DNA of 9,133 bases from a virus. Taxonomy: Duplodnaviria; Heunggongvirae; Uroviricota; Caudoviricetes. The notes beneath the pieces are model-generated. The model had not been told where the DNA came from. It was given only the letters and a program-made list of their open reading frames with translations, and did no database searches. The DNA lies in the IMG/VR virus record IMGVR_UViG_2585427757_000007, positions 1 through 9,133 of that record. One strand, written 5' to 3'. The translations under genes were made by a program, and so were the position numbers. Shown here piece after piece: positions 1 through 9,133 of this stretch (its first letter is position 1; the number at the start of each line of letters is the position of its first letter).

Positions 1-120
1 TCTGATAGGCTCATACCGCTTTTGCGCAAAGCAGATGGGCCTGAGGTTTGCTTGTGACCCCAACGCATGAGCAGATGGCTGGCAGGTGCCGCTAACACCC
101 ACCAGCCGCCCATTACCACA

Positions 121-147
121 AATTAAAAAGCCTTCACTGCGGAAGGC
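121..147 (-). terminator. Candidate intrinsic terminator after the small CDS 134..331
   Basis: Perfect inverted repeat GCCTTC (130-135) / GAAGGC (142-147) with a 6-nt loop; on the minus strand the stem is followed by TTTTTAATT (129-121). The stem includes the stop codon at 134-136. Confidence 0.4.
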
Positions 148-331
148 GTCTGTAACAACCGAACTGATAATCTGCCAGACCCGCCATAACAAGCTGAGTC
201 AGTATTAACTGGCAGCGTTCGCGTGAAAGGTAAGTATTCTGCGCAATTTCCCCGACGGTCGCCGGTTCGGTGACGCTTAATTCATTAAACACCACTCTGG
301 CGGTTTCGGTCATATCCTGCTGTTTTAGCAT
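134..331 (-). CDS. Small hypothetical protein (65 aa), possibly a winged-helix DNA-binding protein; first gene after the candidate tR'
   Basis: Part of track ORF 134..454. I prefer the internal ATG at 331..329 (MLKQQDMTETARVV...), which has a purine-rich SD (AAAAGGGAAAAAGG) just upstream. The GTG at 454 sits inside the terminator-like hairpin, so it is an unlikely start. The functional guess is from sequence pattern only. Confidence 0.4.
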   Translation of the reverse strand: MLKQQDMTETARVVFNELSVTEPATVGEIAQNTYLSRERCQLILTQLVMAGLADYQFGCYRRLPQ

Positions 332-454
332 GCCTTTTTCCCTTTTCCGGTTAACGTGACATACCAATACCTCTTGTCGAAAAAGCCAGCAAGCTGAAAG
401 ACCGGCATTCGCAACCACCAGCGCATTTAACGTCCTGTACCGCTTTTCGGGCAC

Positions 455-476
455 AAAAAAAACCGCATAAAGCGGG
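455..476 (-). terminator. Candidate tR'-like intrinsic terminator downstream of the Q-like gene
   Basis: Minus-strand RNA: CCCGC-UUUAU-GCGG (4 GC pairs) followed by eight U (462-455). It lies about 170-190 nt past the Q-like stop (644-646), similar to the lambda PR'-6S-tR' spacing. The stem is short, so confidence is moderate. Confidence 0.4.
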
Positions 477-480
477 TTCT

Positions 481-643
481 TTCAGGTGTCCATGTCTGCT
501 ATTCGCCTCGCGGTATAGCTTTGCGAAGCGTAGCTGGATTGAAACAGTTTATGGCTAAAAATACAAGCTTTTTTTCTAAAACTGCACAAACCTTACTACC
601 AGCCAAAAATCCTCTTCGTGCAACAACAAACGCCCTCCAGATT
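481..643 (-). promoter_or_regulatory. Candidate late promoter (PR'-like) and Q-utilisation region between the Q-like gene and the tR'-like hairpin
   Basis: Positional inference only. It is a non-coding interval right after the Q-like gene, with several weak -35/-10-like hexamers on the minus strand (for example TTGTGC-N17-TTGTAT); no single promoter can be resolved by eye. Confidence 0.3.
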
Positions 644-1198
644 CTAAGCGTCAGTAAAAGAAAATGCATCTCGCATCAGTGGATACAGAATAAACTCAGC
701 TATTCTCAGCCACATATCTATACGATTGCGGCATGTTGCATAGCACCACTCAGGGTGAACCTCATTCAACAATTCAGCCATTTTGCGTTTACTCATCCCC
801 CGCCCTTCGTACCTTTGCCGCAGGATATCAATCAATCCAGGATAACGTGCAAGCGCTTTACTTATCACCCCATCAATGCGTAACGCCTCTGCATCAGTAC
901 AGTGAGACAACCAGCTCTTCTGTCTGCCAGCGATCATCTCTCGCAAGAATGCTTCCAGCTCTGGTTTATCAATCCCTGACTCCCTGATTCTACGCAGAGC
1001 TTCATTGACCGCGGTTTTTGTCAGTTTTTTGGATGCCAGCAACTGATTGAACATATTTCCTGGTTTGCCACCACCTATATACGACCAACGCCCCCACATC
1101 CGTAATTTTCCCTGGATCCAGACGGCTTCCAGCGTTTTTAGACGTAAATGCTCGCCGCTTTTACCTGTAATTTCCGGGTATATCATATTTACGATCAC
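644..1198 (-). CDS. Putative late-gene antiterminator (Q-like) protein, 184 aa; family not identified
   Basis: Sits directly downstream of rusA with a GTGA start/stop overlap (1195-1198) and is followed by a non-coding stretch ending in a hairpin plus U-tract, as expected for a Q/PR'/tR' arrangement. No lambda-Q-type CxxC zinc ribbon was recognised, so the function is inferred from position. Confidence 0.5.
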   Translation of the reverse strand: MIVNMIYPEITGKSGEHLRLKTLEAVWIQGKLRMWGRWSYIGGGKPGNMFNQLLASKKLTKTAVNEALRRIRESGIDKPELEAFLREMIAGRQKSWLSHCTDAEALRIDGVISKALARYPGLIDILRQRYEGRGMSKRKMAELLNEVHPEWCYATCRNRIDMWLRIAEFILYPLMRDAFSFTDA

Positions 1199-1560
1199 TC
1201 ACTCTCAATTTTGTAAATCTTCACGCCCAGCCGCCCCCCAGGAACGCGCTGACCGCGCACAATATTGATTTCATCAAACTGCTCGTCGTCTATGAGAAGT
1301 CCGGCATGCGTCAGCGCATCCAGTGGTGCTTTCAGGATATTGTCCAGGTCGCGACGACGTTTATCCGGTGGCTCTGCAATAATCTTTATCGCCAGCCTTC
1401 CGGACAGGTTTAATTTCAGCCGCTGCTGGCGAACAATAAGCGCCACATCACGGCGATAACGCTCACCGGCTTTTGATACAAAATATGTGCTGCCACGACG
1501 TCGCCAGTAAGTGTTCACCGTTGGCGGGTAAGGCAAAACAAATTCTATGCGTTCAGTCAT
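1195..1560 (-). CDS. rusA: RusA-family Holliday junction resolvase (crossover junction endodeoxyribonuclease)
   Basis: The 121-aa product (MTERIEFVLPYPPTVNTYWRR...DKRRRDLDNILKAPLDALTHAGLLIDDEQ...) matches the RusA pattern, including the acidic DLDN block; size and position (before the Q-like gene) are typical. SD GGAAAG lies upstream of ATG 1560. Confidence 0.9.
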   Translation of the reverse strand: MTERIEFVLPYPPTVNTYWRRRGSTYFVSKAGERYRRDVALIVRQQRLKLNLSGRLAIKIIAEPPDKRRRDLDNILKAPLDALTHAGLLIDDEQFDEINIVRGQRVPGGRLGVKIYKIESE

Positions 1561-2619
1561 TCATGCTTTCCACTTCAGGACACCCGAATTTCTCGCGTGC
1601 ATTAAAAAACGAATCAGCAACAACAGCTGGCTGCCGTGTTTTTCTTCAAAATCTTTTACCCCGGCGTGTAGTTCGCTATGGCATTTACGGCACAGCGGAA
1701 TAACAAACAAATCATCAGCCTTTGTTCCCATCCCTCCCAGTCCATGACCAATGATGTGATGCGGATCATCTGCCTGATTGCCACACGTCATGCATTTCTG
1801 CGTTTTTACCCAGCGCGTGTATACAGGCATCTCTTCCCGTTGTGGTTTCTGGCGCTGGAGATACTGAGCCGGTGACTCCGGATCAACGGCAATGCTGACC
1901 ACCGTCTTTTCCTGTGGTGGATTCTGTTGCTGGTGGGCGTGAGGCAACGGCGCAATATTTTTTGTGCGCTGCTTCAGTATGCTGATGGCGGTCTGCTCTC
2001 CCGGTACGATGTCGCTCTCGCGGTATACTGAGCGGATTTTTTCACTCGGAAGCTTCAGGATTCGACGCGCCATATTTTCGGTCATGGCATCCACTACATC
2101 ATTTACAGAAGCCCAGCAGCACAATTCAGCCAGCGATAATTCCCGCTCCTGCGTGCCATTCACTGCATGGCGTATGACGTCAATCATCCATGCTGACAGG
2201 TTTTGATGAGCAAGTTGCCCGAGTGATTCGGAGGTCTGGTCACGCAGCTGGTTGTCGCAGTGCCAGCACAACACCATCGCGCCGGTACCGTAACGATGTA
2301 TGACGATTTCACTGTGATGATAGTCACCATGAGGCCACTGGCAGGATTTAACGTGGCGTAACAGCCAGTCAAACAGCGCACCAGCACCGCCAGCAGCACG
2401 AATCACCCGCTCATCGCTGAAAAATGGCAGTAGTGATTTATCCTCCGCCAATGGCTGGCGAACGGCAGGAACGACTCCGGACGGCAGACCGCGCATGCTT
2501 TTCGGTTCCGGCTCCACCAGTACACGACCGCTGCGGAATACCTGCATGGATTCACGACCAGGCTTAAGGACCACCAGCCCAAGTTCCGGTACCGGAACAG
2601 ATCGAAGTAATACCCGCAC
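1561..2619 (-). CDS. YdfU/DUF968-like prophage protein with C-terminal HNH-like Cys/His motif (352 aa)
   Basis: GTG start at 2619 with a strong SD GGAGG 5 nt upstream. The C-terminal block CMTCGNQADDPHHIIGHGLGG...LFVIPLCRKCHSELH (aa 276-318, nt 1666-1794) resembles an HNH/zinc-binding motif. Size and location match Qin ydfU as I recall. Confidence 0.75.
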   Translation of the reverse strand: MRVLLRSVPVPELGLVVLKPGRESMQVFRSGRVLVEPEPKSMRGLPSGVVPAVRQPLAEDKSLLPFFSDERVIRAAGGAGALFDWLLRHVKSCQWPHGDYHHSEIVIHRYGTGAMVLCWHCDNQLRDQTSESLGQLAHQNLSAWMIDVIRHAVNGTQERELSLAELCCWASVNDVVDAMTENMARRILKLPSEKIRSVYRESDIVPGEQTAISILKQRTKNIAPLPHAHQQQNPPQEKTVVSIAVDPESPAQYLQRQKPQREEMPVYTRWVKTQKCMTCGNQADDPHHIIGHGLGGMGTKADDLFVIPLCRKCHSELHAGVKDFEEKHGSQLLLLIRFLMHARNSGVLKWKA

Positions 2620-2620
2620 G

Positions 2621-2899
2621 TTACCTCCAGATCCGTTGCTGGAATGTGCGGGACGGACGCGGTGGGCGTTCGGAATAAGGGAGTCTGACGTAGATTATCC
2701 AGAGACGATAATCGAGGCTGAGGGCTTTCCTAAACTCATACCCACGTCTGCGGTAGTTCTGAATCAGCCACTCGGCCTGTTCTTCGGTGCAGGGGTCGTG
2801 CTGATACCAGTCAGATTTGAATGTGTGAGGATACCGCTCGTGCGTGCAGGCAAGAACGGTCGAATTATTATGATTGTAATATTTTGCGTTGCGTGCCAT
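2621..2899 (-). CDS. Hypothetical prophage protein (92 aa)
   Basis: ATG at 2899..2897 preceded by SD GGAGA (spacing about 6). Its stop TAA (2621-2623) lies 1 nt from the GTG start of the downstream gene, indicating translational coupling. Confidence 0.6.
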   Translation of the reverse strand: MARNAKYYNHNNSTVLACTHERYPHTFKSDWYQHDPCTEEQAEWLIQNYRRRGYEFRKALSLDYRLWIIYVRLPYSERPPRPSRTFQQRIWR

Positions 2900-2965
2900 C
2901 GGTTTTCTCCGGTGGCACGGTGTTACTCAGCGGGAGTTCAGCCCCGCGCAAGATTGTAGATGAGT

Positions 2966-3229
2966 TTATTCTTCTGAAAAAGCAGAAAAGCCAGCTTTTA
3001 TTCCGATCTCTTTCAATGCCTGTAATGAAGTGACAAACTCACCATCGCGCAAGATAAATCCGTCCGTCACTCGGGCATCCACAAAATTAATTAACGCAGC
3101 CCCACTCTTTCTTTGCTTCTTTCGCAAACACAGAACGCGGCAATGACTAACAATATTTCCATTTTCAACGCACACAGCATAGAGGCCATCTTCACAAAAA
3201 ATTTTACGCAGTTCTTCGATGTTCATCAT
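2966..3229 (-). CDS. Hypothetical small prophage protein (87 aa); occupies the position that rem holds next to hokD in Qin (identity not verified)
   Basis: ATG-ATG start at 3229 preceded by SD GGAAGGA (spacing about 5). No recognisable motif. Confidence 0.6.
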   Translation of the reverse strand: MMNIEELRKIFCEDGLYAVCVENGNIVSHCRVLCLRKKQRKSGAALINFVDARVTDGFILRDGEFVTSLQALKEIGIKAGFSAFSEE

Positions 3230-3445
3230 CAGAATCCTTCCGGATAATTAGCTCTCCCCTTCAGGGGGCCATCCCTCTTATCCCTGCGCGCTACTTAAGT
3301 GTTTTGGATTCTATATCCGGTGTCTTAAAAAAGTTAAAACGCATTGAAAATAAAACAAAAACCGTCGAAGCGGGTTAAGTGCGGGTGCGTTGAGGATGCC
3401 GACACATCAGAGGTGGCGGGAGATTACTCTCCCGCCAGGTCACTC

Positions 3446-3601
3446 TTACTCTCTAGATTCGTAGTCTACGAAAACAGCAACCTCCATCTGGCCGGTTCGG
3501 ATTCGTACCTCGCAGAGGTCTTTCCTCGTTACCAGTGCCGTCACTATGACGGTTAAACAGATGACGATCAGGGCGATTAACATCGCCTTTTGCTGCTTCA
3601 T
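3446..3601 (-). CDS. hok: Hok/Gef-family type I toxin (HokD/RelF-like), 51 aa
   Basis: Product MKQQKAMLIALIVICLTVIVTALVTRKDLCEVRIRTGQMEVAVFVDYESRE: a single transmembrane helix plus the conserved C..R.....E.A.F...E tail, near-identical over about 38 residues to E. coli HokD as I recall it. ATG at 3601..3599 with SD AAGGAG about 9 nt upstream. The track ORF 3446..3628 begins at an upstream GTG that I consider less likely. Confidence 0.9.
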   Translation of the reverse strand: MKQQKAMLIALIVICLTVIVTALVTRKDLCEVRIRTGQMEVAVFVDYESRE

Positions 3602-3659
3602 AGCCTGCTTCTCCTTGCCTTTCGGCACGTAAGAGGCTAATCTTCAGTTGTCGAGACAT
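3453..3659 (-). CDS. mok: mok-like overlapping reading frame (modulator of killing), about 68 aa
   Basis: An alternative frame overlaps nearly all of hok and starts at ATG 3659..3657, about 58 nt upstream of the hok start, as in canonical hok/mok/sok loci. The track ORF 3453..3758 is the longest form; the shorter start is an inference. Confidence 0.45.
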   Translation of the reverse strand: MSRQLKISLLRAERQGEAGYEAAKGDVNRPDRHLFNRHSDGTGNEERPLRGTNPNRPDGGCCFRRLRI

Positions 3660-3877
3660 AAGACTGGCCTCACTTCGATTTATAGTCGGGTGGGGCTTTT
3701 CTCTATCTGCCTTTTGGTGTTCATGCCTGAGACAGATAGCCTCAAGCACCCGCAGCAATTCTACTTATGACGCAATTTAATGACAACAACTCTACAGCGG
3801 TAGTGTGTTTAACTATTGACATTGATTAACTCATTATTCAAAATTTTTGCGTACGCATTAATGATTTTGTGTCGTTG

Positions 3878-3900
3878 TTGTGATGGTAAAAAAATCACAA
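3878..3900. promoter_or_regulatory. Perfect dyad TTGTGAT-N9-ATCACAA overlapping a TGgTAAAAA extended -10-like element about 35 nt upstream of gene A
   Basis: TTGTGAT at 3878-3884 and ATCACAA at 3894-3900 are exact reverse complements. The spacer contains TG at 3884-3885 followed by TAAAAA at 3887-3892. Candidate operator and promoter for the A-B operon. Confidence 0.35.
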
Positions 3901-3934
3901 ACGATCTAACAATAACATAGGTGATATTTTCAAT

Positions 3935-5077
3935 ATGGAAATTAAGCAAGTTATCGTTCATGAACTAATTAAAGAAGCAAAAAAGGATTTTGATTTTTCT
4001 AAGCCGTATCAGCTTAGATCCACTCCTCTCGATAAAACCAATCCAATTGTTATAAAACTTATTCAAGACATTTCATCTTTATATGGAACCAAAGGCAATT
4101 CTGCACATTATGGCGTTTTTAAAGAGGAGAAAACAGAACAAGGGCCTGTGCCATCAATATTTGAAGAGTATTCTCAGTCAGAGGATAACATTAATGAAAA
4201 GTTTGTGCCTTTTTCTATTGAAGTGATGAAGCAACTTGTAAAAAAAGCCAAAGAAGAACCTTGGTCATCTGGTGGTTTTATTGTGTTTTGTGACTATATT
4301 GTAAATAACAATAAATTCTTTTTAATTGCAATGATTAAAAAGAAAAATGGTGTTACTATCAGCAACAAACTCGAACCTGAAGAAATGATCCATTTGGATC
4401 TATCCAAAATACACCAAGCAGCAAGAATAAATTTCAATCTCTACCAACAATATAAAACTGCTGATGAGTCTGAAAAAATTGACTTAAGTTATCTAAGTTT
4501 CGTAAGTAAAGGAGTGGGTCAATCCACATCAGCATATTTTATTGCAGCAATAGGATGCGACAAATCACTTGCAGCAGCAAAAGCCACAAAAAAACTACCA
4601 ACTGTCGCAAAACAATTTTTTAACCAAAAACCAGAACTTAAAGCATGTGCCAATAGATTTAAACATGACGTTATTGCATATTTAGACACACAAGCAGCTA
4701 AAAATTTATCAGCCCGATTGAGTGATATTGAAGTAATTGCAGCACGTCACATGACAAATTTAGATGAGTCTACCAAAGAATCTTACACTCACGAATTAAT
4801 TCTTTTTTTAAATAGTGAAAATGTGAGAATCCCAACTGAATTTGTTATCAGTAAACGGGCGTTGAAAGACATTAAAAACATCACCTTTAAGACTGATGAG
4901 ATTGGATTTAATTTTGACAAGTCTCTCCTTGGAGTGACAGCTGATGATGATGTGTGGTACGATGAAACAACTGGAAGATTATCATTTACAAACTTACCAG
5001 CTGAATTTAAGGCTAAACTAAGCGCTGTGGTAAAAGAAAATTTAAAAATAAGGGATAGTGGAAAAGAAAATGGCTAA
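3935..5077 (+). CDS. Nucleoid-associated protein YejK/NdpA (NA37 family) homologue, divergent, 380 aa (gene A)
   Basis: ATG 3935 with SD AGGTGA upstream. Several blocks align with E. coli YejK as I recall it: IVHELIK vs IALHQLIK; LYGTKGNSAHYGVFKEE vs VYSAKNKAYGLFSEE; GGFIVFCDY vs GGFVLFCHY; FNFDKSLLG...VWYDETTGRLSF vs INFDAMLLG...IFWDPATDTLTI. The gene is about 30% GC, unlike the flanking backbone. Confidence 0.85.
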   Translation: MEIKQVIVHELIKEAKKDFDFSKPYQLRSTPLDKTNPIVIKLIQDISSLYGTKGNSAHYGVFKEEKTEQGPVPSIFEEYSQSEDNINEKFVPFSIEVMKQLVKKAKEEPWSSGGFIVFCDYIVNNNKFFLIAMIKKKNGVTISNKLEPEEMIHLDLSKIHQAARINFNLYQQYKTADESEKIDLSYLSFVSKGVGQSTSAYFIAAIGCDKSLAAAKATKKLPTVAKQFFNQKPELKACANRFKHDVIAYLDTQAAKNLSARLSDIEVIAARHMTNLDESTKESYTHELILFLNSENVRIPTEFVISKRALKDIKNITFKTDEIGFNFDKSLLGVTADDDVWYDETTGRLSFTNLPAEFKAKLSAVVKENLKIRDSGKENG

Positions 5078-6290
5078 TTTATCAACGGTTGTAGATTTTT
5101 ATAGAGCATCATCGAAGCCCCAATTCGACGGACGTTCTTTTTCTGCAACTGTTGAAATAAATAATAACAATCAACGTTTGGTAAACTTGTTAGTAAATTC
5201 ACATAAAGCCTACGGTTATTTTGAAGATGTTGATATTAATAATGAGTTCATTGACGAAGACGATTTAAAATCACACCCAATTAAAATTGGAGATAAATTC
5301 TCATACACTTACATATCCCCTAAAAATGGAGCAGAACGTTTCTATAACTCAATTCAAGAGTTCCTTTGTATAAACTCACTCAAGAAAGGTGTAATTCCTA
5401 AAGAGTATTACATAATCGATGAGGATTTTCATCCGTCTGATTCAAGTAAACCGGACGAAATTATAAAAATCGAGAAAATTTGTGCAATTATTTCTTCCCT
5501 GGCTGAGATTGCGCACTTTCACGATACAAAATCGGAATCTTCAAATTATCGTTTAGTTTTCGTGAAAGATTCTGACGCAAAATCAACATCTATTATTTTA
5601 GAAACGTGCATTACACCTAAGATGCTCAATATAAATGACATTGATGATGCTATCATCAAGAGTCTTTTAGATGTAAAAAACGCCCAAATCCCCCATCAAG
5701 CAGAAAAAACAGGTATTTTCAGGAATACCATAGTGGAGTTTATTCTCGATAACAAATATGATTTTGAAAACCTAATTTGCCATTGGGATAAATTTGTAAA
5801 GCTATTTGAAAATAATTTATCCACGTATATGAGTGGTTTTTCATTCCATAAGGCACGAAAAGAAATTGCGAAGTCTGAAGCAGAGTTTGCTGAAAAAATC
5901 TCAAAACTTATTACTGATTTGACGACAAAAGTATTATCAATCCCTGTGTCTTTACTGGCATCCTTCGGGATTATAAAACTAACATCAAGATCTGAAATGT
6001 TACTCGTTTTATTAGGTGTATTGTTAAGCTCACTTATTTTATATATGGTATTACTCAATCAGGATAAACAATTAAAACATATTTACCATGCTAAAGATAT
6101 AGCATTTATGCCTTTTCTAAAAAACAATGAAAATTATCCAGAAGACCTTAAGAAGGACATTAATGAGGCTCTATATGAACTATCAAAGAGCCAAACCAAA
6201 TGTGATAATACAATAAAGTTATTTATGTATTTGGCTTGGCTACCAAGTTCTATTGCAGCAGGAATATTTCTTGCGAAGATTTTTATTTAG
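5070..6290 (+). CDS. Membrane-anchored protein of unknown function (gene B); about 300-aa soluble N-terminal region plus C-terminal hydrophobic helices
   Basis: Preferred start is ATG 5070 (MANLSTV...), which overlaps the gene A stop (5075-5077) by 8 nt; the track ORF begins at GTG 5058. Hydrophobic segments (track numbering): VLSIPVSLLASFGIIKL (about 292-308), MLLVLLGVLLSSLILYMVLL (314-333) and LFMYLAWLPSSIAAGIFLAKIFI (388-410). AT-rich; no known motif recognised. Confidence 0.8.
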   Translation: MANLSTVVDFYRASSKPQFDGRSFSATVEINNNNQRLVNLLVNSHKAYGYFEDVDINNEFIDEDDLKSHPIKIGDKFSYTYISPKNGAERFYNSIQEFLCINSLKKGVIPKEYYIIDEDFHPSDSSKPDEIIKIEKICAIISSLAEIAHFHDTKSESSNYRLVFVKDSDAKSTSIILETCITPKMLNINDIDDAIIKSLLDVKNAQIPHQAEKTGIFRNTIVEFILDNKYDFENLICHWDKFVKLFENNLSTYMSGFSFHKARKEIAKSEAEFAEKISKLITDLTTKVLSIPVSLLASFGIIKLTSRSEMLLVLLGVLLSSLILYMVLLNQDKQLKHIYHAKDIAFMPFLKNNENYPEDLKKDINEALYELSKSQTKCDNTIKLFMYLAWLPSSIAAGIFLAKIFI

Positions 6291-6306
6291 CTCTAACAGT
6301 TAGAGC
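6290..6306. other. Short palindrome between convergent genes B and C; weak candidate bidirectional terminator
   Basis: GCTCTAA (6290-6296) / TTAGAGC (6300-6306) with loop CAG. It contains the last base of the B stop codon (TAG 6288-6290) and the whole C stop codon (TAA on the minus strand, 6300-6302). The stem is AT-rich and lacks a clear U-tract on either side. Confidence 0.3.
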
Positions 6307-6815
6307 ATTAATACTCCCTCCAATACTCCCATCGCTGCTTGTATTTTTTTTCTAATAGTCCCATCCGCACATTTCTTTCTTTTTGCGATCTTTCTCAAAG
6401 AAACGCCTATTACAAAGTGGGCAACAATTAACTCATATTCATCTATTTTATATTGTCTGAGTCTCAATATCCACTCATCAATCACTCGCCCTTCATCATC
6501 GCGGCTCTGGCGACGCAATTTTTTACCATGAGGCACAACATCTTTATATTTATCAGCCACTTGCTGCCAGTTGATAGAACTATTTCCAGCTACAGCCCAA
6601 GCTCCCCAACAGTCCAAAATATCATATATATTAGCATTGCTATCTACCTGTTTTTTATATTCTTTTTTGAAGCGAGCAAGAAGCATCCTGGCCATCGTTA
6701 TTATTTCTATACTTGTAACTGATTCATAAGCATCAGGAGAAATAATCCTCCCATCACTTAATGCCCTTTCACTAAGATTTGCTATTTCCAATAATCGTTC
6801 TTTAGTTATTTCCAT
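6300..6815 (-). CDS. Q933/QuuD-family (PF06530-type) antiterminator-like protein with about 60-aa N-terminal extension (gene C), 171 aa
   Basis: Preferred start is ATG 6815..6813 with SD GGAG 7 nt upstream; the track ORF starts at GTG 6827. It shares a WGAWA motif and the C-terminal block ELIVAHFVIGVSLRKIAKRKKCADGTIRKKIQAAMGVLEGVLML with the DLP12/933W-type Q protein as I recall it (...LLVDYYVVGMTF...CSDGYIGKRLQKAEGIIEGMLMAL); this region also resembles a sigma-70 region-4 HTH. About 38-40% GC. Confidence 0.7.
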   Translation of the reverse strand: MEITKERLLEIANLSERALSDGRIISPDAYESVTSIEIITMARMLLARFKKEYKKQVDSNANIYDILDCWGAWAVAGNSSINWQQVADKYKDVVPHGKKLRRQSRDDEGRVIDEWILRLRQYKIDEYELIVAHFVIGVSLRKIAKRKKCADGTIRKKIQAAMGVLEGVLML

Positions 6816-6826
6816 TATTATCTCCA

Positions 6827-6842
6827 CCGCCCTTTCGGGCGG
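6827..6842 (-). other. GC-rich hairpin immediately upstream of the gene C ribosome-binding site
   Basis: CCGCCC (6827-6832) / GGGCGG (6837-6842), a perfect 6-bp GC stem; on the minus strand the loop is GAAA (a GNRA-type tetraloop). No U-tract follows on either strand, so it is not a classical terminator. It abuts the SD of gene C. Confidence 0.4.
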
Positions 6843-6929
6843 CCTCCTGATGTTCTGAGGGTGCAGAAATCCCTCCGGTTAAGGATTAAATTTTATTTAC
6901 AGTGCTGGATTTAATTATTCAGATTTGGA

Positions 6930-7205
6930 TTATGCTTTCTCTTCACTCCGGTATACAAGAATTACAACGTCACCTCTGCTAATCACGCGAGCTGGCTCTC
7001 CTGGTTCTATACTGTCAATATCGAAGGTCTCAAAAAACGCATTCATTGCCTTCTGCCGCTGCGTCTGTTTACAGCGTTTATTCCATTCTTTCAGTAACAT
7101 CAGTGACAGCCACCGCCATGAGCAGAACATGATGTAGCACCAACCAAGAAGCGCCAGCCCCGTATTGAGGGCCGTACCAATCGTCATTGTTGCGTCGATA
7201 TTCAC
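6930..7205 (-). CDS. Small hypothetical membrane protein (91 aa)
   Basis: GTG start at 7205 preceded by a strong SD AGGAGGAGG; the start overlaps the stop of the upstream gene (GTGA at 7202-7205). Hydrophobic stretch IGTALNTGLALLGWCYIMFCSWRWLSLMLL. Confidence 0.6.
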   Translation of the reverse strand: MNIDATMTIGTALNTGLALLGWCYIMFCSWRWLSLMLLKEWNKRCKQTQRQKAMNAFFETFDIDSIEPGEPARVISRGDVVILVYRSEEKA

Positions 7206-7498
7206 TGTACCTCCTCCTGGAAAATAACTGCATGCCCCAGTTTCTCCGCCAGCGCCAGTTCTGCCTTAGCGCCTGCTGACCGCTGCCAGCCTTTCAGCAT
7301 GTAAATCGCATCCACACAACGAATCATTGCCATGCAAATATCCATGTAGTGCGGCTGTGTCAGCCCGTCCGGAAGCACAGCCGGATTTAAAACGGTATGC
7401 CCTTCCCGTTTCAGTTCCTCTTCTGCCTTGTGAAACGCCTCACGGTTGAAATTTTCATACCCCGTCATTGGACCGGCGATATAAACCCTCACCCTCAC
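7202..7498 (-). CDS. DUF4406 / nucleoside 2-deoxyribosyltransferase-like small protein (98 aa)
   Basis: N-terminal VYIAGPMTG motif typical of this fold. GTG start at 7498 preceded by SD AGGAGG (spacing about 7); GTGA overlap with the upstream stop. Confidence 0.6.
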   Translation of the reverse strand: MRVRVYIAGPMTGYENFNREAFHKAEEELKREGHTVLNPAVLPDGLTQPHYMDICMAMIRCVDAIYMLKGWQRSAGAKAELALAEKLGHAVIFQEEVQ

Positions 7499-7911
7499 GC
7501 CATCACCTCCTGAAAATTACCCTGATAAAATGCCAGCACACGCTGCATAACCTTGCTTTTCTGGCACTCGAGACAGATTATGTTCTGACGCCTGTCGTAG
7601 TGGCGTATCTCTCCATCTGGTAATGAATAAATCAGGCCAGGGTCGCTCTTCTTTTTCGCTGCACCTTTAGACATCTCTTTATGGGCTTTTATCCAGTCTT
7701 TACGTACCTGCTCAGAAGGGAATATTCCATGCCCTGAACCATATACAACACCACGGTCTACCAGTTCTTTCGCCAGAACTTCAATCAGATGTCTCGTCGC
7801 CCCTGTTTCATTTTCCAGTTGTTTACGCGTTTTCCTACCATCTCTGCGTACCAGTTCCACAATACGCGCCTTTACTTCTTCCCGTTGTTCGGGAGTAAAA
7901 ACTTTTACCAT
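7495..7911 (-). CDS. Hypothetical prophage protein (138 aa)
   Basis: ATG 7911 preceded by a strong SD AGGAGG. Follows the DnaC-like gene after a 14-nt gap. No motif recognised. Confidence 0.65.
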   Translation of the reverse strand: MVKVFTPEQREEVKARIVELVRRDGRKTRKQLENETGATRHLIEVLAKELVDRGVVYGSGHGIFPSEQVRKDWIKAHKEMSKGAAKKKSDPGLIYSLPDGEIRHYDRRQNIICLECQKSKVMQRVLAFYQGNFQEVMA

Positions 7912-7925
7912 AAGTCCTCCTGAAA

Positions 7926-8672
7926 TTACTTCACAACCCTCAGGTGTCTGACATTCGAACGCCAGCTCTCCCAGTTAAAATTCACCCAGCGACCACCGTT
8001 CATGACCATGCGGTCCATCACACGCTCGCCAAGAAGCGTACTCATCGCTACGTGGTTCAGGTTCGTCAGCATTCCGACACTACGCATCGAAGCCGTTCTG
8101 CGGTCGACTATCTGGTTCAGTGTGACCTGCTCGTTGCGCGTATCCCGCTGCATTCCGATTTCATCCAGGACAAGCAGGTCAACATCACACAACCCCTGTA
8201 AAAATTTTTCGCCTGAGTTTTTATTGTCGTAGCTGTTGTGTAACGCCAGCATCACATCAGCCACCGTTATCACAATCACGCTGCGACCTTTCGCCAGAAG
8301 ATGATTGCCAATGGCGGCTGCAAGGTGGTTCTTTCCGGTACCCGGCTTACCGCTGAACACAAAATTCGTGCACCCGGTCATCAGTTCGTCAGCGATGGAT
8401 TTTGCCTGGCTCAGCGCATGTTTTTGCCCGTCGTTCTGCACCTGATAATTCGCAAACGAGCATTTGCTGTGCAGAGGCTGGATGCCCGAACGATTCAGGA
8501 TTTTTTCCACCCGCAACTGGCGATTCTGGCGGTTGATCTCCTCGCTACGTTTTCGCCCTTCAGCCAGTTGCCACTCGCGCCACTCATCCACTGTCCGGTA
8601 CGGCGCGATTACATGCTGCGGGGTCAGCTTACGGATACGCTCAAGAACACCACCTGCCGCGATATTTTTCAT
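7926..8672 (-). CDS. dnaC: DnaC-like replicative helicase loader (IstB-like AAA+ ATPase), prophage copy
   Basis: Walker A FSGKPGTGKNHLAAAIG and Walker B DLLVLDEIG. Similar across the full length to E. coli DnaC as I recall it (RSGIQPLHSKCSFANYQV vs RSGIRPLHQNCSFENYRV; VTLNQIVDRR...GMLTN...LLGERVMDRM). Confidence 0.9.
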   Translation of the reverse strand: MKNIAAGGVLERIRKLTPQHVIAPYRTVDEWREWQLAEGRKRSEEINRQNRQLRVEKILNRSGIQPLHSKCSFANYQVQNDGQKHALSQAKSIADELMTGCTNFVFSGKPGTGKNHLAAAIGNHLLAKGRSVIVITVADVMLALHNSYDNKNSGEKFLQGLCDVDLLVLDEIGMQRDTRNEQVTLNQIVDRRTASMRSVGMLTNLNHVAMSTLLGERVMDRMVMNGGRWVNFNWESWRSNVRHLRVVK

Positions 8673-8678
8673 GGCCCG

Positions 8679-9133
8679 TTACCCCCTGAACCCCGGCGGA
8701 ATTTCGGTATCCGGCTCAGAAATATGATTCACACAACGCTGTACAGACGAACGCCCCAGGCGGATAACCAGTTCATCCCATTTTCCGCGAAGCTTTGACG
8801 GACTCATGATATTTTTTACCCAGAATGGATCCCGCTGCGCCCGACCAAACATTTCACAAATTTGTCTGTGAGTTCTGCCATCCAGCATCCGCATTGTGCG
8901 CACGTCGTTGGCCCATGCGGTCCAGTTGGGTTCTTTCGGTCGCGAAATCTCGCCATCATCGCTGGCGGCCTGCTCGTAAAGACTCACGATTCGTCCCCAG
9001 ATCCACTGCGCACACGCCAAATCCTCCTGATTGCCCCACTGGCGTTTTTTTGCACTGAACACAACCGCGTCAGGGTGTCGGGTTAAAAAATCCTGTTCAA
9101 CCGCCTGCGGGTCCGGTTGCGAAGCTTCCGGAC
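8679..9133 (-). CDS. DnaT-like (primosomal protein 1 C-terminal domain) replication protein; 5' end lies beyond the window
   Basis: The reading frame stays open from 9062 to the window edge (my translation of 9063-9131 has no stop). The C-terminus ...NHISEPDTEIPPGFRG matches the E. coli DnaT C-terminus (...SEPDSQIPPGFRG) as I recall it. Together with the DnaC-like gene this forms a dnaTC-like pair. Confidence 0.75.
   Translation of the reverse strand, partial: PEASQPDPQAVEQDFLTRHPDAVVFSAKKRQWGNQEDLACAQWIWGRIVSLYEQAASDDGEISRPKEPNWTAWANDVRTMRMLDGRTHRQICEMFGRAQRDPFWVKNIMSPSKLRGKWDELVIRLGRSSVQRCVNHISEPDTEIPPGFRG

Follow-up and report, generated by a model that had tools for sequence, protein, structure and literature searches.

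A prophage-borne YejK-like nucleoid protein and its membrane-anchored partner as a probable anti-phage pair related to DS-1 and similar in architecture to Type II PANGU

What does a nucleoid-associated protein do in a prophage when its gene overlaps that of a membrane-anchored partner? This question is raised by two plus-strand genes, referred to below as A and B, in the IMG/VR virus record IMGVR_UViG_2585427757_000007 (Caudoviricetes), of which positions 1 to 9,133 were analysed (this 9,133-nt stretch is called the window; Table 1). The answer favoured here, with a probability of roughly 0.7, is that A-B is a prophage-borne two-gene anti-phage abortive-infection pair resembling Type II PANGU, in which A would be the sensor, bound to the nucleoid, and B the effector in the membrane. 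The gene anatomy, the homology to the DS-1 defence pair, the reciprocal linkage with co-divergence, the membrane segments, and the defence-hotspot location are established by the results below.

According to profile searches, A is matched by Pfam NA37 (PF04245) with an E-value of 2e-51 over model positions 1-324 of 325 (175.8 bits versus a cut-off of 24.6), by phrog_3767 'nucleoid associated protein' with 3e-73, and by the solved structure of Escherichia coli YejK (PDB 9be2) with 3e-14, and its RefSeq record, WP_001460784.1, carries the name 'nucleoid-associated protein'. Because the NA37 match is full length and is accompanied by the match to 9be2, A is taken to be an intact divergent NA37 protein and not a yejK fragment. 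A previous reading made from the letters of the window without database searches (the sequence-only reading) had described A as a divergent homologue of YejK/NdpA, which these values confirm, and had kept open the case of a pseudogenised yejK fragment, which they rule out. The NCBIfam YejK equivalog model (NF001557) gives 1.5e-40 and 139.4 bits, below its 341-bit cut-off, and A is a paralogous lineage rather than YejK itself. E. coli YejK (NdpA) shares the NA37 fold family with A, aligns with it over the full length, and keeps the same N-terminal motif (V/I)xxHxLxK and GGxxxF block. YejK, however, is a chromosomal stand-alone housekeeping nucleoid protein, whereas A is always paired with B.

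As for B, its start is the ATG at 5070; an alternative GTG is located at 5058, and databases carry the ATG form of 406 amino acids (aa), not the GTG form. B has no match in Pfam, PADLOC, or PDB sequences, and is matched by phrog_5023 with 7e-70. Among 1.84 billion cluster representatives, a profile search reports 1039 members of the B family at E <= 1e-3 (representatives at the 50%-identity level), nearly all of which are about 400-430 aa long and full length. A soluble region of about 285 aa is followed by three hydrophobic segments (aa 288-305, 310-330, and 384-406), in good agreement with the approximately 300-aa soluble region and C-terminal transmembrane (TM) helices of the sequence-only reading; a match to a housekeeping or structural phage protein, which that reading had named as a way for its proposal to fail, is not among the results for B. 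The AlphaFold2 model of B has a predicted local distance difference test (pLDDT) value of 86.3. The model of the N-terminal domain is confident, yet it matched no solved fold and shows no enzyme fold. The net charge of the N-terminal region is -9, with a family mean of -11.6 and an isoelectric point (pI) of 5.15, which is a modest acidity and refers to sequence charge only, not to surface electrostatics.

The pairing of A and B is obligate and reciprocal across the loci examined. An A homologue lies directly upstream of B on the same strand in 52 of 52 B-relative loci (48 from IMG/VR and 4 lineages read from gene calls, forming 31 clusters at 90% identity and 8 at 50%), and a B-family gene lies directly downstream of A in 63 of 65 A-relative loci, with A identity down to 29%; the two exceptions are one frameshifted A and one contig end. 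Co-occurrence elsewhere had been set beforehand as a test of the module, and these counts answer it from both sides. Moreover, identities of A and B co-vary (Pearson r 0.96, Spearman rho 0.42). Of 53 related loci, 51 have a spacer of -11 to +39 nt between the two genes, which in 27 of them is an overlap of 4, 8, or 11 nt. In the window the junction ...GAAAATGGCTAA contains the ATG of B at 5070-5072 and the TAA of A at 5075-5077, so that the 8-nt overlap, with the start of B inside the stop region of A, is read directly from the sequence as had been claimed, implying that translation of the two genes is coupled. B homologues with identity down to 33% are spread across Enterobacterales, and identical A and B proteins are found on 97 and 224 contigs, respectively. 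Together with homologues that keep the same length and pairing down to 29% identity, these identical copies place the two open reading frames (ORFs) far beyond chance. The module is present in only 4 of 5426 complete E. coli genomes, and being intact yet rare is the usual pattern for accessory defence cargo.

In two lineages A is disrupted while B is intact, namely Serratia marcescens (L001/L002, 3866-4999) and L014/L067 (IMG/VR 2851949629_000008). A is split into 233 + 105 aa in one of them and carries a frameshift in the other, which suggests that the sensor gene decays occasionally.

The sequence-only reading had also offered A as a xenogeneic nucleoid regulator with a membrane partner, similar to NdpA2 of Pseudomonas, which is borne on an integrative and conjugative element. 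In such a role A would tune the expression of host or prophage genes, and B would be an accessory membrane tether. The full-length NA37 match and the horizontally acquired, AT-rich DNA of the module agree with such a role. A free-standing regulator would, however, not be expected to remain so strictly and reciprocally coupled to a membrane protein over so wide a divergence. A and B each have a homologue in a validated defence pair, and the module lies in a defence hotspot. The analysis brought this explanation no support, and we consider it very improbable.

The validated pair is DS-1. Judged by their sequences, A and B are distant homologues of the two DS-1 proteins, adjacent and in the same order, yet not equivalogs. 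The NCBIfam models DS1_1_antiphage (NF053868) and DS1_2_antiphage (NF053869) match A and B with 5.9e-29 and 4.2e-30 (101.2 and 105.1 bits, respectively), which is below the equivalog cut-offs of 330 and 315. BLASTP reports 22% identity between A and DS-1A over 214 aa (E 9e-9) and 27% between B and DS-1B over 162 aa (E 1e-14), and hhalign aligns the B-family profile with DS-1B over 285 columns with 97.3% probability. DS-1 corresponds to TU D390 in the DefensePredictor study (Science 2026 / bioRxiv 2025, PMC13092281) and consists of WP_000355468.1 and WP_000150292.1, of which DS-1A has 391 aa with a zinc ribbon and an NA37 domain and DS-1B has 404 aa (PMC13092281). Cloned with its native promoter, DS-1 is protective in E. 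coli MG1655, with -log efficiency of plating (EOP) equal to 7.6 for Bas1, 2.7 for Bas26, 1.7 for Bas3 and T3, 1.0 for T5, and 0.9 for T7 (Table S7, PMC13092281). The same paper names the YejK domain among those it newly links to defence, and it reports no mechanism for DS-1 (PMC13092281). Similarly to A-B, DS-1 is a two-gene operon from E. coli whose first gene encodes an NA37/YejK-domain protein and whose second encodes one of about 400 aa that has a hydrophobic region towards its C-terminus. The hydrophobic segments of DS-1B are weaker, with a maximum Kyte-Doolittle value of 1.56 versus 2.83 for B. The A-B lineage is phage-borne, whereas a search of the phage collection with DS-1B gives no match.

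A mechanism is reported for PANGU systems, in which a YejK-like nucleoid protein resides on the chromosome, is freed when the phage degrades host DNA, and then binds an acidic 'DNA-mimicking' effector domain; T4 escapes via a denA mutation (bioRxiv 10.64898/2026.04.06.716658, April 2026). Type II PANGU comprises the nucleoid protein Pag2A and the effector Pag2B, the latter having an N-terminal acidic ('DMK') and a C-terminal TM domain (10.64898/2026.04.06.716658). Protection requires both genes and takes the form of abortive infection, and the genes are non-toxic whether expressed singly or together (10.64898/2026.04.06.716658). Pag2A binds the effector domain with a dissociation constant (KD) of 19 nM and exits the nucleoid upon T4 infection, and the preprint states that how Pag2B becomes activated is undetermined; activity, abortive infection, and the genome-degradation trigger are reported for PANGU-Ecu only (10.64898/2026.04.06.716658). 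PANGU was found via linkage to defence islands, and the preprint is silent on prophages and on a Q-linked slot (10.64898/2026.04.06.716658). The DS-1 paper (PMC13092281) and the PANGU preprint (10.64898/2026.04.06.716658) do not cite each other, and neither mentions prophages.

The likeness of A-B to Type II PANGU concerns architecture: both are bicistronic, combine a YejK-like protein with a TM effector, and come from E. coli. The PANGU operon definition (a gap under 40 bp and a single partner gene) includes the 8-nt overlap of A-B, and the TM domain of the Type II partner has its counterpart in the clear TM segments of B. Association with defence genes is likewise common to both, since the slot occupied by A-B holds Kiwa or PDC-M53 elsewhere and other copies of the module are located in P4-like elements. 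The class of a YejK-like nucleoid protein with a transmembrane effector is represented by DS-1 and by the Type II PANGU architecture, and A-B is a very divergent, untried member of it. The sequence-only claim that such a pairing is undescribed is therefore out of date, as NCBIfam holds paired DS-1 models and the PANGU preprint defines the class. PADLOC-DB v2 gives no match for A, B, or Q, which reflects the 2023 date of the library and is not evidence against defence.

An overlapping two-gene operon with a membrane protein, situated next to a hok/sok stabilisation locus, could also be read as a toxin-antitoxin-like addiction or superinfection-exclusion module in which a constitutively toxic or injection-blocking B is restrained by A. 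Type II PANGU genes, however, are non-toxic singly or paired, and their nucleoid protein is an activator, not an antitoxin. In addition, A at 380 aa far exceeds typical antitoxins, and hok/sok belongs to the resident backbone outside the insert that carries A-B. This explanation appears very unlikely.

Under the abortive-infection reading, A and B would be made in the lysogen from one translationally coupled transcript, and A would sit on the chromosome. Degradation of host DNA by an infecting phage would free A, which could then bind the mildly acidic N-terminal domain of B. The helical-hairpin membrane region of B would then damage the membrane, and the infected cell would no longer support phage growth. 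A sensor with a membrane effector acting by abortive infection had also been proposed by the sequence-only reading; of the architecturally identical systems, DS-1 is shown to protect and Type II PANGU to act through release of its nucleoid protein, and for the A-B lineage the same behaviour is expected by analogy with these relatives. Lambda RexAB provides a functional analogy only: it is a prophage-encoded two-component abortive-infection system with an intracellular sensor that activates a membrane protein, and it is located in the immunity region, not beside Q. To our knowledge, RexA falls outside the NA37 proteins, and no relationship in sequence or fold links RexAB to A-B.

Several points weigh against such a mechanism for A-B. 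The identity to DS-1 is just 22-27%, and the scores reach roughly a third of the equivalog cut-offs. The N-terminal CxxC...CxxC zinc ribbon of DS-1A (MDITCLECG...CDKCG) is absent from A, and A as well as all 22 A-family representatives begin straight at the NA37 motif. A also lacks the basic stretch KGRVGRK of YejK, which is replaced by SKGVGQS or SKTTGQS throughout the A family (A aa 189-196, window positions ~4499-4522), and its DNA contacts may therefore differ; DS-1A, in comparison, retains two lysines in the equivalent stretch. If A aa 189-196 correspond to the Pag1A DNA-contact residues K200/R203/K204, DNA may perhaps be bound by another surface of A. Finally, membrane disruption by B is a proposed action that has been demonstrated in no relative.

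The location of the module provides a separate line of evidence. In the window, B converges with a Q-family antiterminator gene, and the two stop codons are 9 nt apart. Of the 52 loci, 46 have a Q homologue convergent with B. The stop-to-stop distance was measured in these 46 and in Klebsiella phage P7641, and in 46 of these 47 Q-bearing loci it falls between -20 and +9 nt. On the other side of the module, an alignment of 20 divergent loci reveals a sole conserved block within 260 nt upstream of A, consisting of the invariant TTTTGCGTACGC (3845-3856) followed by (A/G)TTA. Within this element lie the 10-mer TTGCGTACGC (3847-3856) and the palindrome TGCGTACGCA (3848-3857). Among 97 loci with a convergent Q, 96 carry the 10-mer at 60-96 nt upstream of A, versus 1 of 20 loci without Q, this one being on a contig that ends before Q could show; by chance, about 1.8 copies would be expected over the full 924 kb searched. 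P4-like loci lack the 10-mer, even at 75% A identity. These counts (96/97 versus 1/20) indicate that the element tracks Q, not A-B.

As for promoters, a scan of 3400-7000 reports sites no more numerous than in shuffled sequence, so the calls in Table 1 rest on positional conservation and stay candidates. A promoter-like pair at the position equivalent to the A-B candidate is present in 30 of 44 unique related segments, and a Q-sense pair ((C/T)TAACG, 18 nt, TATCGT) occupies the same position in 22 of 44. According to positional scoring, module-sense promoter-like pairs that overlap the Q-sense pair are found in 30/44 and 26/44 segments. In 23 of the 44, the block is followed at a distance of 73-122 nt by a hairpin plus T-run. 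In the window itself the block has diverged past the palindrome, and the stretch down to the insert edge at 3768 contains no terminator. We infer that the conserved block is a Q-cognate late promoter, or Q-binding, and terminator region. The StxS/pR' paper (PMC7547250) deals with a different Q type and is of no help in mapping the start site. Q-dependent late transcription running antisense through A-B was considered and dropped, since the late-promoter block was found beyond A and A-B lies between Q and this block. If active, the Q-sense candidate promoter of the window would transcribe into hok/sok, on the same strand as hok.

The position between Q and the inferred late promoter, adjoining the lysis cassette in most phages, makes it conceivable that A-B serves the development of the prophage, for example by modulating late transcription under Q or the timing of lysis, with A bound to phage or host DNA near pR' and B in the membrane beside the holins. 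The inferred A-B promoter overlaps the Q-sense promoter, and B is a small multi-helix membrane protein, both of which agree with this role. In contrast, the invariant element follows Q and not A-B, unrelated defence cargo occupies the same slot, and A-B is also found in P4-like elements without Q or lysis genes and in Q-less loci. Furthermore, DS-1, to which A-B is homologous, is protective when carried on a plasmid with no phage context, and in the window about 5 kb separate the module from the lysis genes. A developmental role is thus judged improbable.

Phages that have a homologous Q (52-59% identity) and no A-B show what else this interval carries. In all 5 examined, namely mEp460, Stx2a_1447, Stx1_499, SfII, and a Klebsiella phage, Q is followed by 1-3 opposite-strand cargo genes, a single Q-sense copy of the block, and late genes (stx1A, holin S), with a hairpin plus T-run after the block. 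In Klebsiella phage ST846-OXA48phi9.1 the cargo is Kiwa (KwaA 1.6e-82, KwaB 5e-144), and in Shigella phage SfII it is the PADLOC candidate PDC-M53. Both are two-gene opposite-strand cargo in the identical interval, and their proteins are unrelated to A-B, so that they are comparable by context only. Since 2 of the 5 alternative cargos are defence systems, the location supports a defence role for A-B.

It is possible, although at present a tentative suggestion, that the interval between Q (PF06530) and the late promoter/terminator is a dedicated opposite-strand defence cargo slot in lambdoid phages of Enterobacterales, in which the cargo promoter is back-to-back with the late promoter around the palindrome GCGTACGC. 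If so, the cargo would ride with the Q/late-promoter pair in mosaic recombination, its expression could be coupled to the lysogenic or lytic state, and the several two- or three-gene cassettes of the Stx1, Stx2a, and mEp460 phages would be candidate defence systems. No description of a Q-linked cargo slot was found in the literature searched. The cargo genes of mEp460_4F5, Stx2a_1447, and Stx1_499 (Table 1) have no match in Pfam, NCBIfam, or PADLOC; we regard them as candidates for new defence cassettes, and some lie immediately upstream of stx genes.

Other copies of A-B are located in P4-like elements of Serratia (L001, A 75% identical) and Dickeya (L005, A 54%). These carriers encode a Zn-ribbon primase / Toprim / DUF927 protein and AlpA, and have neither Q nor the conserved element. 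The module therefore moves among at least two kinds of mobile-element cargo site.

According to ORF calls and Pfam, the window is a part of a lambdoid prophage with genes mostly on the minus strand. The E. coli genome NZ_CP025847, which is identical, places it in a Qin-like prophage adjoining potC, with dicB, ydfB, and ydfC, and with late genes after the DUF1133 gene. In blastn of the window, homology to a related prophage with other cargo (NZ_CP035832) is confined to 3159-3767 and 6778-7501. Since it stops at 3767 and resumes at 6778, these positions define the edges of a 3.0-kb insert, and the AT-rich island therefore takes in most of the minus-strand Q-family gene too, of which just the first ~50 nt (6778-6827) are in common with the resident backbone. 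GC content is 0.31-0.34 over 3800-6200 versus 0.45-0.57 in the flanks; within the insert it is 0.31-0.38, with about 0.375 in windows of 6201-6800, the part of the Q-family gene. The sequence-only reading had seen here an AT-rich island of the nin-like region, a classic site for morons and anti-phage cargo. The low GC content stands, and the insert is better described as an imported cassette, running from the Q gene to the late promoter, in which A-B is nested, than as a simple moron. The interval between hokD and DUF4752 holds differing cargo in other prophages, and recombination of the whole cassette with A-B into this slot, in a recipient prophage whose late genes were already preceded by a resident DUF1133/Q-related gene, explains the arrangement.

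The prophage holds two Q-related genes, the imported low-GC one and the resident DUF1133 gene. The latter is also a weak Phage_antitermQ match, just upstream of the late genes, and the imported Q is extended at its N-terminus by about 65 aa that are phrog_3323-like. A chimeric N-terminus of the Q-family gene was suspected and set aside as weakly supported (8/15 identical residues, E 0.02). The hok/sok type I toxin-antitoxin locus adjoins the left edge of the insert, is part of the resident backbone, and is kept in thousands of E. coli genomes. The claim that A and B are the only plus-strand genes holds in that all other credible genes are on the minus strand; RefSeq, however, has a small plus-strand hypothetical protein at 3225-3404 (WP_001394181.1; L010 13526-13705), an ORF without further support.

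Table 1. Positions of the features discussed; positions refer to the window unless another locus is named (., no strand assigned)
Feature	Position	Strand	Basis or remark
Gene A, 380 aa, YejK-like (NA37) nucleoid-associated protein, proposed sensor	3935..5077	+	ORF, Pfam, phrog, PDB, NCBIfam
Gene B, 406 aa, soluble N-terminal and C-terminal membrane region, proposed effector	5070..6290	+	ORF, phrog, NCBIfam, AlphaFold2
A-B overlap, 8 nt, ATGGCTAA	5070..5077	+	read from sequence
B N-terminal alpha/beta-plus-helical soluble domain, aa 1-243, mildly acidic; proposed A docking surface	5070..5798	+	
B hydrophobic helical hairpin, aa 288-305 and 310-330	5931..6059	+	
B C-terminal hydrophobic segment, aa 384-406	6219..6287	+	Kyte-Doolittle 19-residue maximum 1.78; model helix 391-405
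Foreign AT-rich insert, 3.0 kb	3768..6777	.	contains conserved promoter block, A, B, and most of the Q-family gene
Q-family antiterminator gene	6300..6827	minus	Pfam Phage_antitermQ (PF06530) 2.8e-29 on aa 66-174; convergent with B
Invariant non-coding element TTTTGCGTACGCATTA	3845..3860	.	88 nt upstream of A
Candidate sigma-70 promoter for A-B: TTGACA, 17 nt, CAAAAT	3816..3844	+	10/12 consensus matches
Candidate Q-sense (late, pR'-like) promoter: -35 TTAATG 3861-3856, 17-nt spacer with palindrome, -10 AATAAT 3838-3833	3833..3861	minus	
hok	3446-3628	minus	Hok/Gef Pfam 4e-22
hok/sok type I toxin-antitoxin locus	3446-3751	minus	Rfam sok RF01794 at 3596-3751, 122 bits
Resident DUF1133 gene	644-1198	minus	Q-related
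DnaC/IstB-like loader	7926-8672	minus	
DUF977, DUF4406, DUF4752, DUF968, RusA, DUF1133 genes		minus	lambdoid prophage
Cargo genes in slot, mEp460_4F5	L127 4384-5310	opposite to Q	
Cargo genes in slot, Stx2a_1447	L128 3858-5421	opposite to Q	
Cargo genes in slot, Stx1_499	L129 3873-5980	opposite to Q	

The results link the phage-borne PHROGs 3767 and 5023, to which no function is assigned, with the validated DS-1 and the mechanistically studied Type II PANGU, which are unconnected in the literature. The B-type partner family is large and obligately paired with a nucleoid protein. As a very divergent prophage-encoded variant that has neither the zinc ribbon nor the basic stretch of YejK, A-B offers material on which to examine how general the release of a nucleoid protein is as a trigger and what the membrane effector does. 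The location finding could outweigh the module itself, as an invariant DNA landmark beside a specific Q type marks a cargo slot. With two known or candidate defence systems and further cassettes in medically relevant Stx phages, this slot may offer a cheap route to new defence genes.

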